The notes under the pieces are model-generated. The model had not been told where the DNA came from and searched no databases. It saw only the letters and a program-made list of their open reading frames with translations. Made by a program: the position numbers and the translations under genes. Of a stretch of 64,000 nucleotides of DNA, positions 4,679 to 60,564 are shown piece by piece (the stretch's first letter is position 1; each line of letters starts with the position of its first letter). This DNA comes from a virus. Taxonomy: Duplodnaviria > Heunggongvirae > Uroviricota > Caudoviricetes. The stretch lies in the IMG/VR virus record IMGVR_UViG_3300017987_000047; one strand, 5' to 3'.

Positions 4679-4734
4679 CATCAAACGAAGAACAAAAAAA
4701 ATTCAATATATATAAATAACTAAAGGGTAACCGC

Positions 4735-5013
4735 TTGCCATTCTCTTTTAAATGGAGGCAAGTTATGACGTACCGAGAAGAAGAATTACGAACAAGGATA
4801 GACGGAATTCAAAGGCTTGAGGCGAAAGCTAAATGCCCAGAATACCGACGGATTCTCCAAGAACGGAGGTACCGGGTTGAGCGCTCGCTTAATTCCGAGC
4901 GCAGACGAGCTATCTTTTTAGTAAAGGATACAGAATGCCAAATTTTGAATAAAGTGATTCTTGCAATGGTATTTTTAGGGGTTTGTTTTCTGTTATTCTA
5001 TTTTGGGAAATAA
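4735..5013 (+). CDS. hypothetical small protein with C-terminal TM segment
   Basis: 92 aa ORF, hydrophobic tail VILAMVFLGVCFLLFYF. Confidence 0.3.
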   Translation: MPFSFKWRQVMTYREEELRTRIDGIQRLEAKAKCPEYRRILQERRYRVERSLNSERRRAIFLVKDTECQILNKVILAMVFLGVCFLLFYFGK

Positions 5014-5018
5014 CCACA

Positions 5019-5435
5019 ATGAAAAGTATCTACTACCGGAAGGGGTGGTGGGAAAAACTTTCTGGCACATCTCGCAAACAAATCCGAGATTTATCCTTCC
5101 GCTCTGAGGGCGACTTTTGTGCCTCGATTATGGAAGACCCGCCTTATATTATAAGGCTATTTAACCAGTCAAAACTAATTGGCTGGGTGGCGTATTTTCC
5201 CAACCTCAACGAAATTAATACATATATTCGCAAGTCCGAAAGGCGCAAAGGACATGGACGGCGTCTTATGAAAAGGATGGCGGCGTTTTTGGAAGAAAGA
5301 AACAAGAGAAACAAGAAAGGGTTACCAATCGTTTGGAATTGGGATGCTACAAGTGGCCCGTTCTTCCACACCTTGAGCCAGGAACTGGGAAACCAAAAAA
5401 CCTTCCTAATTCGAAATGCGGACCCTTTCCCCTAG
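5019..5435 (+). CDS. GNAT-family N-acetyltransferase (putative)
   Basis: Motif A-like RRKGHGRRLMKRMAAFL; ATG 5019 follows upstream stop 5011-5013. Confidence 0.5.
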   Translation: MKSIYYRKGWWEKLSGTSRKQIRDLSFRSEGDFCASIMEDPPYIIRLFNQSKLIGWVAYFPNLNEINTYIRKSERRKGHGRRLMKRMAAFLEERNKRNKKGLPIVWNWDATSGPFFHTLSQELGNQKTFLIRNADPFP

Positions 5436-5487
5436 TGCGTTCCCTGCATGGTGCTATGAAGTGCCGATCTTTAAGGAGAGATGACTC

Positions 5488-5988
5488 ATGAGTTGGAAAT
5501 CGCTTGAGACCGCTGCTGAGCGTGGCCCGATCCGGTTAGGGTGTGCGATCATTGTTGTTGTGGCGGTGTTGGGAGGCATCGTCGGCATCCTTGGGTATGG
5601 GTGTGGCCTTTTTGGGGAAGCGGCGAGTGTGACCCAAGAGGAATTCGGGCCGAGAGCACTGCTCGAAAAGTACGAGCTTTTCAAAGATATGCATGCCCAG
5701 CTCGACAGCAAACTCGCCTCTATTGAGGTCTACCGCCAGAGGGTAACTCGGTTTGAGGAAGATTTTGCAGATGTCCCTCGGCCCGAGTGGGATCGGCATG
5801 CTCGGTCTGAGTACGATTTGCTTACGGCGGAATTGACAGGAATGGTCGCCGCATATAACAGCCTTGCAGCCGAGTACAACGCAGCAATGGCAAAGTTTAA
5901 CTACCGTTTCTGTAACACAGGAACTTTACCGGAGGGAGCTACCCAAACATTGCCAAGGGAAGTTGCGCCGTACGAATACGGGTATTAA
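5488..5988 (+). CDS. LemA-like membrane protein (putative)
   Basis: N-terminal TM AIIVVVAVLGGIVGILGY, C-terminal ...AYNSLAAEYNAAMAKFNYRF pattern reminiscent of LemA. Confidence 0.4.
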   Translation: MSWKSLETAAERGPIRLGCAIIVVVAVLGGIVGILGYGCGLFGEAASVTQEEFGPRALLEKYELFKDMHAQLDSKLASIEVYRQRVTRFEEDFADVPRPEWDRHARSEYDLLTAELTGMVAAYNSLAAEYNAAMAKFNYRFCNTGTLPEGATQTLPREVAPYEYGY

Positions 5989-6039
5989 ACACGCCCGTTG
6001 TCCTGCTACCCGTTTTATCTTTCCCAAAAGGAAATCCCA

Positions 6040-6609
6040 ATGCGCACCTCAACTTTCTTTTTCCTCCTAGCCCTCGTCTGTTCCTTGTTTATGCTCAGCT
6101 GCGACGAAGGGTCTAAGGATGGGCCTGTTTCGCGAACAAACGTTTCTCAGGCCACTGCGAACATCCCGGTCGGGTCCGATGGGCTGACGACCGAACAACG
6201 AAATATTCGACAGCGCCTAGAGATGGACAACACGCCTGGCAGTATCAAACATCTTTATATCATCAGCGCAATGTCTGGGCAGGTAATCCTTTACAGCACT
6301 GTTGCTGGGAAAGTTACTTCGTCTGGCAAGCGCCTCAGCCCATACGGGGTTGTTGCTACTGATGGACAGCACGTCGATAGCGAGCACCAGGGAATCCCAG
6401 TTAGTATTGGAGGCGAGACCCACCACACGTCTGAAGTTCTTCAAGACGATGGGACCTATGGGCACAGCATTCCTTATCTCTATTGGTGGGACCAGCGGGG
6501 TGTTTATCATCAACATTATGTTACCGGCGGGCAGATCGTGCACATTGGAAACGAACCGCTACGAGTCGGAGAAATCATCATCAATATCGAAGAGATGGCG
6601 AGCGAATAA
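6040..6609 (+). CDS. lipoprotein (signal peptide with lipobox LSC)
   Basis: MRTSTFFFLLALVCSLFMLSCDEG; ATG 6040 with upstream AAAGGAAA. Confidence 0.55.
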   Translation: MRTSTFFFLLALVCSLFMLSCDEGSKDGPVSRTNVSQATANIPVGSDGLTTEQRNIRQRLEMDNTPGSIKHLYIISAMSGQVILYSTVAGKVTSSGKRLSPYGVVATDGQHVDSEHQGIPVSIGGETHHTSEVLQDDGTYGHSIPYLYWWDQRGVYHQHYVTGGQIVHIGNEPLRVGEIIINIEEMASE

Positions 6610-6689
6610 TTCTCGCTTTCCATCAAAAACCCTGACCAGTCTTGGGTATTAAAGACTGGAGCTATGATCCCTAACCGGAGGAGCTGAAA

Positions 6690-6977
6690 ATGGCACAACA
6701 ACCGCAAGAAACGAAGTCGAAGGGCCGGCCTGACCCCAATCTTTGGAGTCCAGTGAAGGAGCTTCTGTCGCCCCCTCTTCCCAAAACCCCCAAGTGGAGC
6801 AAATTGTCCGTTAAGGACAAGCTCGCCTACTGGAACACGCGTCTGAAGGTGATCGCGAAACGAGAATCCGCAGGGATGTCTTGCACCCGCGAAAAGGCGC
6901 GGGTTAACAAGCGCATCGACGAACTAAAAGGCGCGGGGAAGCGTGAAAAGAAGGTGGAAGAAGAGGCGCAGGAATAG
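6690..6977 (+). CDS. hypothetical basic protein
   Basis: 95 aa, Lys/Arg-rich. Confidence 0.35.
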   Translation: MAQQPQETKSKGRPDPNLWSPVKELLSPPLPKTPKWSKLSVKDKLAYWNTRLKVIAKRESAGMSCTREKARVNKRIDELKGAGKREKKVEEEAQE

Positions 6978-58910: not shown

Positions 58911-59155
58911 TTCTATATACGGCACTAATAACAATAGTTCTACTTCTTCCCTGTTGCTTCCCAGAAACAGAAGCATATCCTAATTATATAGAACAATTAC
59001 CCCCGAACGCACAGTTCTCAGTTTCCGCAGTAAATGATAGCATTATTTTGACTCTCAAAGTTGGCGATTGGCAAGATATATATGATTGTGGGGACCATGT
59101 TGAAGACGCCGAAAAAAATAGGCTTGCGGAAAGATACGTAAAAGCAAATCGGTAA
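58898..59155 (+). CDS. small secreted/membrane-anchored protein
   Basis: Putative GTG 58898; ILYTALITIVLLLPCCF hydrophobic N-terminus. Confidence 0.35.
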   Translation: MYKIILYTALITIVLLLPCCFPETEAYPNYIEQLPPNAQFSVSAVNDSIILTLKVGDWQDIYDCGDHVEDAEKNRLAERYVKANR

Positions 59156-59172
59156 CAAAAGGATGGATTGGG

Positions 59173-59502
59173 ATGGTATATCTCTATGCAAAATTCGGTT
59201 TGGGGCTTGTAATACTGTTCTTTATTTATTCAACAATGAAAATGTTAAGAGCAAAAGAAGAGCATAGCAGAGCGTTATGGTGGGGTTATATGTTTTTAGC
59301 ACTAGGATGCGTTGGAGCAGCGGCCCTGGTAGGGTATTTCACAGGCACTCCCCACTATGGATATCTGCTATTGATTGGGTTTGGAATTGGAATATTAGGA
59401 CTTGCGGGAGGAACAATTTATATAGATTTCATACTGAAAGTCGCTAACTCCCTAAGCAAACTGCGAGAGAAAAATGTTCCGGAAAAAAACGATGCTGCCT
59501 AA
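59173..59502 (+). CDS. small integral membrane protein (3 TM)
   Basis: LGLVILFFIYS, MFLALGCVGAAALVGYF, LLLIGFGIGILGLAGG. Confidence 0.45.
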   Translation: MVYLYAKFGLGLVILFFIYSTMKMLRAKEEHSRALWWGYMFLALGCVGAAALVGYFTGTPHYGYLLLIGFGIGILGLAGGTIYIDFILKVANSLSKLREKNVPEKNDAA

Positions 59503-59692
59503 GTATGAAGACTTCTGGCATCGAGAGTTAAAATCTCTCTGTCGGAGGAGAGGGGTACGAAACAGTAATGCCTCAAAAGAGCAAATGATTGAACGATTAT
59601 ATGCATTTGATCTAGACCCCGCTAATCTAACCCACCACAACCCTCATCTCAGAAAACTTTGCAAGGCAAGAAGAGATGAAAAATCTTCATAA
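59474..59692 (+). CDS. LTH-tail family protein (NLTHHNPHLRKLCKARRDEKSS)
   Basis: 72 aa. Confidence 0.5.
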   Translation: MFRKKTMLPKYEDFWHRELKSLCRRRGVRNSNASKEQMIERLYAFDLDPANLTHHNPHLRKLCKARRDEKSS

Positions 59693-60074
59693 AGCAAATG
59701 ATATGTATCTATTAATAATAGAACATGACCATTACTATCCGTTTCTTGAGCCTATAACTGAAAAACTGTTTTGGAAAGCCTTTTTTGATTATGTGGCCCT
59801 AGAAACAATAGAAGACCAATATCAATATAAAACAATAGAAGTTATTCAATATGAGAAAAAGATAGGATTTAAGAAAAAGGATAAGGTTGATTTTCAGCCA
59901 GATTGCCGTGGTAGTGTCTTAACCCGAATCTCGGCAGAAGATGGAGAAAGGTACCCACTTAATTATAGTTGGCAAATCCTTAAGCGAGAGGTGAAAGACC
60001 TAATGATAGAACCCCACCTCACTTCAAAACATAAAGCAATCCGGGAACTAGCAAAGAAATTAATAGGAGACTAA
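59676..60074 (+). CDS. LTH-tail family protein (HLTSKHKAIRELAKKLIGD)
   Basis: 132 aa. Confidence 0.55.
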   Translation: MKNLHKANDMYLLIIEHDHYYPFLEPITEKLFWKAFFDYVALETIEDQYQYKTIEVIQYEKKIGFKKKDKVDFQPDCRGSVLTRISAEDGERYPLNYSWQILKREVKDLMIEPHLTSKHKAIRELAKKLIGD

Positions 60075-60075
60075 A

Positions 60076-60414
60076 ATGTTTGAAATATCTCTATATTCCG
60101 GAAATAAACAACAAAGACTAGACCGGGACGTCATGAGGCCCTATATTTGGGTAGAGGCTCTGCCCAGCCCCGCTAAAATCCTACTTTTCTTCCTCAAGCA
60201 GCTCGAGGTTTGGGAGGGGGAAGAAGTAGTGATTCTAAATAAGGAGTGGGAAAAAGTAGAAGATAAATCTTCCCTATACTTCCTATTAGATGGAAGCACT
60301 TATGAAATTAGAGCCAAAGAGGAATCGAAAATAAAATTGCCTCCGATAGAAGCATATTTAACAGAAACTAGTCGTGAAATAAGAAATATCGCAAAGAAAA
60401 GCCTAAATACATAA
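60076..60414 (+). CDS. LTH-tail family protein (YLTETSREIRNIAKKSLNT)
   Basis: 112 aa. Confidence 0.55.
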   Translation: MFEISLYSGNKQQRLDRDVMRPYIWVEALPSPAKILLFFLKQLEVWEGEEVVILNKEWEKVEDKSSLYFLLDGSTYEIRAKEESKIKLPPIEAYLTETSREIRNIAKKSLNT

Positions 60415-60544
60415 TCTCAAATAAATCTCTATTCCTAAAGAACATACATATGTCTAGGGAGAGGTTTGAAGCACGGAATAAACTCTAAACAAAAATAGGT
60501 TACACCTTAACATAGAATTACGCTCGTAGTACCTTTTAGTTCGA

Positions 60545-60564
60545 TTATATATAGGGAATGCCCA
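60545..60564 (+). promoter_or_regulatory. promoter-like motif ATTATATATAGGGAATGCCC
   Basis: Variant of conserved motif upstream of 60623. Confidence 0.35.

Follow-up and report, generated by a model that had tools for sequence, protein, structure and literature searches.

A recurrent two-part promoter-like element in the genome of an uncultured giant phage

The 64,000-nt stretch analysed here (the window) comes from the Caudoviricetes record IMGVR_UViG_3300017987_000047 and corresponds to about 249.4-313.4 kb of a 335,479-bp metagenome contig (ENA ERZ27256770, k141_416325). Its genes are small and nearly all on the plus strand. They include five tRNA genes and genes for sigma factors of the extracytoplasmic function (ECF) type, and a recurrent AT-rich motif, the subject of this work, stands in front of many of them. 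Flanking sequence of 8.35 kb on the upstream side and 9.95 kb on the downstream side was added to the analysis, for a total of 82.3 kb. Genes of the window recur on contigs of up to 384,251 bp, so that the phage genome measures at least 384 kb; the remaining contigs with window genes carry this phage in identical form. A megablast search of the INPHARED phage collection with 21 kb of the sequence gave no close match, and an Rfam scan of the region returned tRNAs only.

Anatomy, enrichment and placement of the element

The motif was first described as a TATATA-AGG box at 12 coordinates. This box makes up just the downstream half of a longer element, which is bipartite and measures about 45 nt. 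Twenty-one sites, 20 within the window and one at window coordinate -2164, were aligned in a single fixed register, position 0 being the C of a conserved CG dinucleotide. All 21 sites have cytosines at -4, 0 and +7. Sixteen have G(+1), and sixteen have C(+18); the A, T, A and T at +22 to +25 are found in 20 each, and A(+26) in 16. The upstream block reads t-C(-4)-n-w-w-C(0)-G-w-w-r-w-A-C(+7) and is centred near -32. Its conserved span is 12 bp, and the distance from C(-4) to C(+7) amounts to one helical turn. The spacer that follows shows a weak excess of G at about +11 to +14 and terminates in C(+18). This weak G-richness accounts for the GGGGATAC that had been listed as a separate feature preceding the motif. 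The A-T-A-T-A core occupies +22 to +26, usually as TATATAA, and AGG(T/A)A lies downstream of the AT run after a variable gap of 0-7 nt. Conservation is limited to discrete columns, and the spacers are free. The copies set apart as a second variant (26107 and 43174, joined here by 11718) have the same upstream block and the same register as the rest, with about 6 extra nt before AGG, and thus belong to the same class.

A weight matrix of two blocks was trained on 15 sites. The motif is present at all 12 coordinates of the original prediction, each scoring at least 16 bits. That list was incomplete, as eight further copies lie in the window (11694, 13313(-), 19171, 35875, 38705, 39407, 43850 and 51361) and one at window coordinate -2164. 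A generic repeat finder independently yielded the motif families D2, D4 and I1. Their longest repeats are at most 43 nt and thus are not fragments of larger duplications. The sites are listed below with their matrix scores; "skeleton match" refers to the pattern CN3CGN5CN14ATAT, and "untrained" to sites outside the training set.

4681-4722, plus strand: promoter-like site, TCAAACGAAGAAC...CAATATATATAAATAAC; score 30.1, leave-one-out 27.3; skeleton match; next ATG at 4765
11694-11735, plus strand: promoter-like site of the former second variant, new; score 24.9; family D2; skeleton match; next ATG at 11784
13272-13313, minus strand: the only minus-strand site; score 24.6; untrained; 74 nt before gene 12973-13239(-)
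15692-15733, plus strand: promoter-like site; score 29.7; the -35 block overlaps the 3' end of gene 15241-15708; next ATG at 15784
17533-17574, plus strand: promoter-like site; score 28.2; holds the exact 18-mer (see below); next ATG at 17598
19171-19212, plus strand: promoter-like site; score 20.7; about 120 nt before the tRNA cluster 19332-20106
20338-20379, plus strand: promoter-like site; score 29.3; read as TCGAAA-18-TATAAT by a sigma-70 scan; next ATG at 20415
24155-24196, plus strand: promoter-like site; score 29.2; 9 nt past a radical SAM gene pair; next gene at 24236 or 24278
26080-26121, plus strand: promoter-like site; score 25.5; heads an operon with HNH (26160-26774), sigma 2 and a further three genes
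28993-29034, plus strand: weaker site, CA in place of CG; score 20.7; untrained; next ATG at 29078
30909-30950, plus strand: promoter-like site with a perfect TATAAT; score 26.3; followed by a hairpin, GGTAGGC...GCCTACC; next ATG at 31035
35041-35082, plus strand: weak site, CC in place of CG; score 16.2; followed by a GC hairpin and a 44-codon open reading frame (ORF), 35129-35263
35875-35916, plus strand: promoter-like site; score 22.7; next ATG at 35949
38705-38746, plus strand: promoter-like site; score 25.0; fold of the 5' leader z=-4.4; next ATG at 38828
39407-39448, plus strand: promoter-like site; score 27.9; 20 nt past terminator 39354-39387; next ATG at 39486
43150-43191, plus strand: promoter-like site of the former second variant; score 25.8; family D2; next ATG at 43246
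43850-43891, plus strand: promoter-like site; score 27.4; untrained; 28 nt past terminator 43793-43822
49813-49854, plus strand: promoter-like site; score 22.4; next ATG at 49889
51361-51402, plus strand: weak, borderline site, CA in place of CG, with TATAAT; score 15.9; next ATG at 51440
60520-60561, plus strand: promoter-like site; score 22.8, leave-one-out only 11.3; twin of 13313(-); next ATG at 60623
Window coordinate -2164: promoter-like site 2.2 kb upstream of the window; score 22.6

The motif is statistically solid and more extensive than first described. It is enriched in non-coding over coding sequence: TATATAA is the most non-coding-enriched of all 7-mers, with 11 of its 20 copies falling within the 8.5% of bases that are non-coding (p=1.3e-7), and four of the five copies of AGGTAGG are non-coding as well. 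The exact 18-mer AATATATATAAGGTAGGC occurs in two copies against 0.05 expected. When the offset of CG from the non-coding plus-strand TATAWW sites (n=31) was tabulated, eight had a CG at -21 and five at -23, compared to about 1.2 expected per offset. No such peak was obtained at coding TATAWW sites or in the opposite orientation. The skeleton CN3CGN5CN14ATAT, which specifies eight bases, is matched 16 times where 0.95 matches are expected, and no more than 3 matches were obtained in any of 100 shuffles; 14 of the 16 are promoter-like sites. Dropping the G gives a looser skeleton with 25 matches, compared to 5.3 expected. A match of the skeleton at 38380-38409, on the minus strand, reached a matrix score of only 4.2 and was not counted. 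Skeleton matches at 4708(-), 21118, 21469(-), 23061, 32423 and 62635 are at chance level and were set aside.

Leave-one-out scores of the matrix range from 11 to 27 bits and are at least 16 in 14 of the 15 training sites. Random Markov sequence of equal size reached a maximum of 21.4 in 100 trials, a value exceeded by two sites outside the training set, 43850 (27.4) and 13313(-) (24.6). Such random sequence gives about 0.5 hits at 16 or above, which bears on site 35041 with its score of 16.2. The pair formed by 13313(-) and 60520 is 97% identical over 31 nt (family I1). Our own Gibbs sampler, run on the gene gaps, returned the ribosome-binding site (RBS) and then T-rich low-complexity sequence, not the motif, and k-mer and positional tests were substituted for it.

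The sites are mostly located in non-coding DNA. Nineteen of the 20 window sites are on the plus strand before plus-strand genes; the remaining one is on the minus strand before a minus-strand gene, within the only minus-strand gene cluster. A start codon linked to a Shine-Dalgarno (SD) sequence is found for 17 of the 20, 54-130 nt past the start of the block. The distance to the start codon, initially given as 20-60 nt, is in fact about 15-85 nt, and the leaders measure about 25-90 nt and often open with a hairpin. Folding of the 50 nt past the AT run gave a mean z of -0.93 relative to shuffled sequence, with 6 of the 21 sites below -1.6, which points to hairpins in the leaders as a side feature. 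Strong folding is seen in the 120 nt that separate site 19171 from the first tRNA (19213-19331; z=-2.6 over the first 50 nt), which might be a small RNA or a leader that undergoes processing. Sites 39407 and 43850 come directly after the two strongest plus-strand terminators of the region:

39354-39387, plus strand: intrinsic terminator before site 39407; 15 base pairs, then a T run
43793-43822, plus strand: intrinsic terminator before site 43850; 13 base pairs, then a T run

A strain variant (contig L043, 98% identical) covers site 15692 and has seven single-nucleotide polymorphisms. Only one of the seven lies within the 42-nt site, in a variable column (T to C at -2), and the conserved columns are intact.

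Probable promoter class, sigma factors and relatives

In its position, its orientation and the spacing of its blocks the element is like a sigma-type promoter. It is promoter-like, as had been proposed, and on this evidence very probably functions as a promoter. Placing the -10 hexamer at +23 to +28 brings the CG to -35/-34, with a spacer of 17-18 bp. The claim that the motif is not a canonical sigma-70 promoter holds as well. TTGACA is obtained in no register of the motif, the best being TCGAAA with four of six bases; the -35 block is instead tC-N3-CG-N5-C, with w-C-G-w-w-w as the consensus at -35 and invariant C's on either side. Within a register range of 7 nt, TAnnnT is present in 13 of the 21 sites and missing from eight, top-scoring sites included, and a TATAAT -10 is present in three. 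The window shows no excess of canonical promoter matches (35, 38 and 47 compared to 32.6, 29.9 and 41.2 expected from shuffles). The only strong host-type promoter in the window is a perfect TTGACA-18-TATACT at 6984-7013, 30 nt before a tRNA-like gene at 7042-7115. This gene is odd, ARAGORN being unable to assign its anticodon. Elements of sequence TGTATAAT are located at 14755(-) and 14831(+), on both strands of the divergent gap 14705-14855. Together with the TTGACA-18-TATACT promoter, these suggest that a few host-type promoters may coexist with the motif.

We could not match the -35 block to a described consensus. The sigma-54, sigma-28 and sporulation-sigma consensus sequences were compared, and none fits. 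An archaeal TATA/BRE promoter was ruled out by the bacterial sigma factors, the bacterial-type CCA-adding enzyme, the hairpin terminators and the T4-like relatives. The T4 late promoter, read by gp55, has a counterpart in the region: an exact TATAAATA is present in two motif sites only (4711 and -2141), and six of the nine TATAAATA copies in the 82 kb are in gene gaps. However, the T4 late promoter has no upstream element, whereas the upstream block is invariant here. Free-standing (G)TATAAATA boxes are found at 12390(-), 13765(-), 35294(+) and, in the downstream flank, 72286(+); they are probably a second promoter class. Another repeated upstream element, devoid of the CG block, is the identical 19-mer ATAAAGATTAACCGGTTTT before two genes of the downstream flank, at about 68150 and 69590 (about 4.1 and 5.6 kb past the window end).

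The only transcription proteins visible in the 82 kb are two ECF-type sigma factors, and a Pfam scan of the same sequence gave no MotA, AsiA or RNA polymerase gene:

26796-27332, plus strand: sigma 2, ECF-type, 178 aa; Pfam r2 and r4_2; TIGR02937 score 45.4 (cut-off 42.9)
Window coordinates -342 to 212, plus strand: sigma 1, ECF-type, 184 aa; TIGR02937 score 74.9 (cut-off 42.9)

Both had been assigned to the window. Sigma 2 is complete there, while sigma 1 enters it only at 3-212, with its C-terminal 69 codons (region 4). The two proteins share only a local identity of 29%, and both have only remote similarity to other phage sigma factors. No homologue of sigma 2 was found among 5.8 billion proteins or in IMG/VR, and a paralogue-family profile search gave self hits only. 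The motif stands at the head of both sigma operons: site 26080 precedes HNH and sigma 2, and site -2164 precedes two small genes, a T4-type RNA ligase 1 (Rnl1) and sigma 1. Such a target promoter on the operon of the sigma factor itself is what autoregulation calls for. It fits a host-read early promoter equally, and is also compatible with other readings.

Two observations concern the surroundings of sigma 2. The gene and the 81-codon gene that follows it share a 29-nt, 93%-identical RBS/start region (26782-26810 and 27330-27358; family D10), and both products begin with MGKYH; the shared start regions may couple translation of the sigma factor and its partner. Farther downstream, a 333-aa protein without a Pfam hit has an H-x3-C-x2-C string as in zinc anti-sigma factors.

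Homologues of Rnl1 number about 100, many of them on contigs of 200-366 kb. The motif was above noise in none of the five relatives with 45-50% Rnl1 identity (contigs L010, L011, L012, L052 and L054). The gene gaps of L010-L012 and the inspected gaps of L052 and L054 contain TTGAC-N17-TATAAT, often over the preceding TGA stop codon, and also T4-type late TATAAATA boxes; L012 encodes rIIB. TTGAC-N17-19-TAnnnT is found 8-10 times per 17-21 kb in L010-L012, compared to seven times in the 82 kb here, which is about background. Thus the positions taken by host-type promoters in the relatives are taken here by the motif, and this T4-like lineage appears to have dropped the host -35 signal for its own. 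A closer relative (L042, from JGI 3300018080, 81% identical) keeps the Rnl1-sigma 1 order; its contig stops before any promoter.

Further searches added little. A metagenome scan with the radical SAM protein gave only relatives of about 30% identity, IMG/VR searches with Rnl1 and with a 297-aa protein gave nothing, and a search for the host with CinA in the genome collection gave nothing either. The 18-mer had 29 single, unrelated chance hits in the genome collection, mostly intragenic, and one hit in IMG/VR, also unrelated.

Other features of the region

A large family of small proteins (about 100-150 aa) carries a C-terminal HEAT-like motif, (L/F)LTH(E/D)xPxVRxxAK. There are about 37 copies in the window, with about 16-20% identity outside the motif, at 205-522(-), 13871-14704(-), 15241-15708, 33083-34514 and in most genes between 41 and 62 kb. 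A GC-rich segment of about 540 nt at 35290-35830 contains no credible ORF, its sole long one being of low complexity and on the minus strand. It is preceded by an intergenic TATAAATA at 35294, folds with z=-2.1, has no Rfam match and may be a structured RNA. The 110-codon gene at 37953-38285(-) has about 62% G+C, compared to about 42% for the phage, and no Pfam match, and looks like a recent foreign insertion. The 99-aa protein encoded at 39907-40206 matches cREC_REC, the cyclic-phosphate processing receiver domain, over its full length (E=5e-26). With RNA ligase 1, the CCA-adding enzyme and kinase-like genes, it forms an RNA-repair toolkit in one region of the genome.

Candidate readers of the element

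We favour the following reading. The motif as first described would be the -10 half of a bipartite promoter of about 45 bp for a sigma-dependent bacterial RNA polymerase. This promoter would start at least 20 transcription units of non-structural genes, including the tRNA cluster and both sigma operons. It would be read by the host core polymerase together with one of the phage ECF-type sigma factors, whose own operon would then be under positive feedback. We infer from the sequence both that transcription would initiate at the sites and which sigma factor would read them. Since the upstream block is not TTGACA and the core often departs from TAnnnT, a phage ECF-type sigma factor would be the likeliest reader. 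The foreign -35, the ATATA core, the two orphan sigma factors and the motif-less relatives that use host promoters all argue for it, and we consider the case for a phage-encoded sigma factor to be evenly balanced. A stronger form of this proposal is put forward tentatively. A private grammar, with a three-cytosine -35 and an ATATA -10, may have near-wholly replaced host-type promoters in this phage; one of the orphan ECF-type sigma factors of the phage would read it in a self-reinforcing manner, and the other sigma factor would be a downstream target.

The middle and late promoters of phage SPO1 are private -35/-10 pairs, read on the host core polymerase by a cascade of phage sigma factors, gp28 and gp33/34; their consensus sequences differ from those found here. 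That SPO1 uses phage-encoded sigma factors is noted in PMC13401047. In phiEco32, the ECF-type sigma factor gp36 reads the AT-rich tAATGTATAtA (PMC4281155). The two systems are alike in the phage ECF-type sigma factor, in the extended AT-rich -10-like element before non-early genes and in the use of the host core polymerase (PMC4281155). However, the phiEco32 sigma factor and those described here share no sequence similarity by tblastn of phage records, and the upstream block is strongly conserved here, unlike in the phiEco32 promoters. Moreover, the motif stands before the sigma genes of this phage, whereas in the phiEco32-like phage SU10 the sigma gene, 100% identical to gp36, is under a sigma-70 promoter.

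Several points weigh against a phage sigma factor as the reader. The computation ties neither sigma factor to the motif. ECF promoters typically have an AAC core at -35 and a CGT core at -10. This consensus is not reproduced by the element: positions +5 to +7 read w-A/T-C, with AAC in the minority, and there is no CGT at -10. The G-rich sequence right after the -10 resembles a discriminator, which primary sigma factors read. Both sigma genes are behind the motif, so another factor must fire first, barring read-through or the few host-type promoters. The relatives drive the same Rnl1 neighbourhood by host-type early promoters, and analogy with them favours a host-read early class. Finally, the visible part of the genome is 82 kb of at least 384 kb.

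Instead, the holoenzyme of the host with its primary sigma factor could read the sites directly, as early promoters. The phage-specific columns would then be additional strength determinants (cf. the T4 'über' promoters), or the host's primary sigma factor would prefer a -35 other than TTGACA. We regard this as unlikely. In its favour, the -10 core is AT-rich, with TATAAT in three sites, the spacer length is appropriate for sigma-70, the AGG past the -10 is discriminator-like, and sigma genes and tRNAs lie downstream, as for the first class of a cascade. Relatives have host-type promoters at the equivalent positions around Rnl1, and T4 early promoters carry conserved sequence outside the host elements (PMC2988021). 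T4-like phages and other jumbo phages that use sigma factors, PA5oct and L010-L012 among them, have canonical early promoters of the TTGAC/TATAAT(A) kind, which share short gaps, frequent overlap with stop codons, spacer length and short leaders with the sites (PMC7318152). However, their -35 block is wholly different, and canonical matches are at background here. TTGACA is approached no closer than by TCGAAA, the three invariant C's lie away from the usual contacts, and even top scorers are among the eight sites that lack TAnnnT. The TTGACA-18-TATACT at 6984 and the TGTATAAT elements at 14755(-) and 14831(+) suggest that the host reads ordinary promoters, and the strong use of SD sequences speaks against a Bacteroidota-type host with a divergent sigma factor.

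Appropriation of the host enzyme as by MotA/AsiA of T4, with the host primary sigma factor at the -10 and a phage DNA-binding activator on the upstream block, seems rather improbable to us. T4 middle promoters resemble the element in that a phage-specific block replaces the -35 above an AT-rich -10 and drives tRNAs and transcription factors of the next stage (PMC2988021). Here the phage-specific block lies near -31, its conserved 12 bp exceed a -35 hexamer and place C(-4) and C(+7) at a distance of one helical turn, the T4-like relatives have rIIB and TATAAATA late promoters, and the downstream tRNAs and transcription factors match the T4 middle set (PMC2988021). However, the MotA box is (a/t)(a/t)(a/t)TGCTTtA at 12±1 bp from the -10 (PMC2988021), compared to a tC-N3-CG-N5-C block at 14-15 bp here. 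T4 middle promoters require an excellent sigma-70 -10, a rule violated in 8 of the 21 sites, and the 82 kb contain no homologue of MotA or AsiA. The sigma factors borne by the phage itself would be a simpler route.

It is very improbable that the element belongs to a phage RNA polymerase, either single-subunit or of the phiKZ/AR9 multisubunit type. Such systems typically have conserved phage-specific motifs ahead of their genes (PMC7598289, PMC5449584), and the larger part of the genome is outside the 82 kb. The element, however, consists of two degenerate blocks over 45 bp and not of one contiguous, near-identical stretch of about 20 bp running through +1; nor is it a short TATG or an AACA-N6-TW element. 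No polymerase gene was found in the 82 kb, the encoded sigma factors need a bacterial core enzyme, and the relatives fall in a T4-like group without its own polymerase (PMC7824862). A role other than as a promoter (in binding a repressor or nucleoid protein, in recombination or replication, or as a duplicated small repeat) would account for the copies that are near-identical over 30 nt (families D4 and I1). We give it very little weight: conservation falls in discrete columns with free spacers, the repeats do not exceed 43 nt, and 13313(-) and 60520, although near-identical, stand before unrelated genes. The sites are strictly co-oriented with genes and are placed before the SD sequence and start codon and after terminators.

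The sites provide an explicit map of about 20 transcription units in part of an uncultured giant phage. If a host sigma factor reads the motif, it would be the fingerprint of an unusual host. If a phage sigma factor does, the element would reveal a new sigma specificity and possibly an orthogonal expression part, and would offer a handle for dating gene classes in unculturable megaphage genomes. Should the private grammar prove true, this phage would possess a sigma-promoter pair orthogonal to its host, with a specificity undescribed for any sigma factor.

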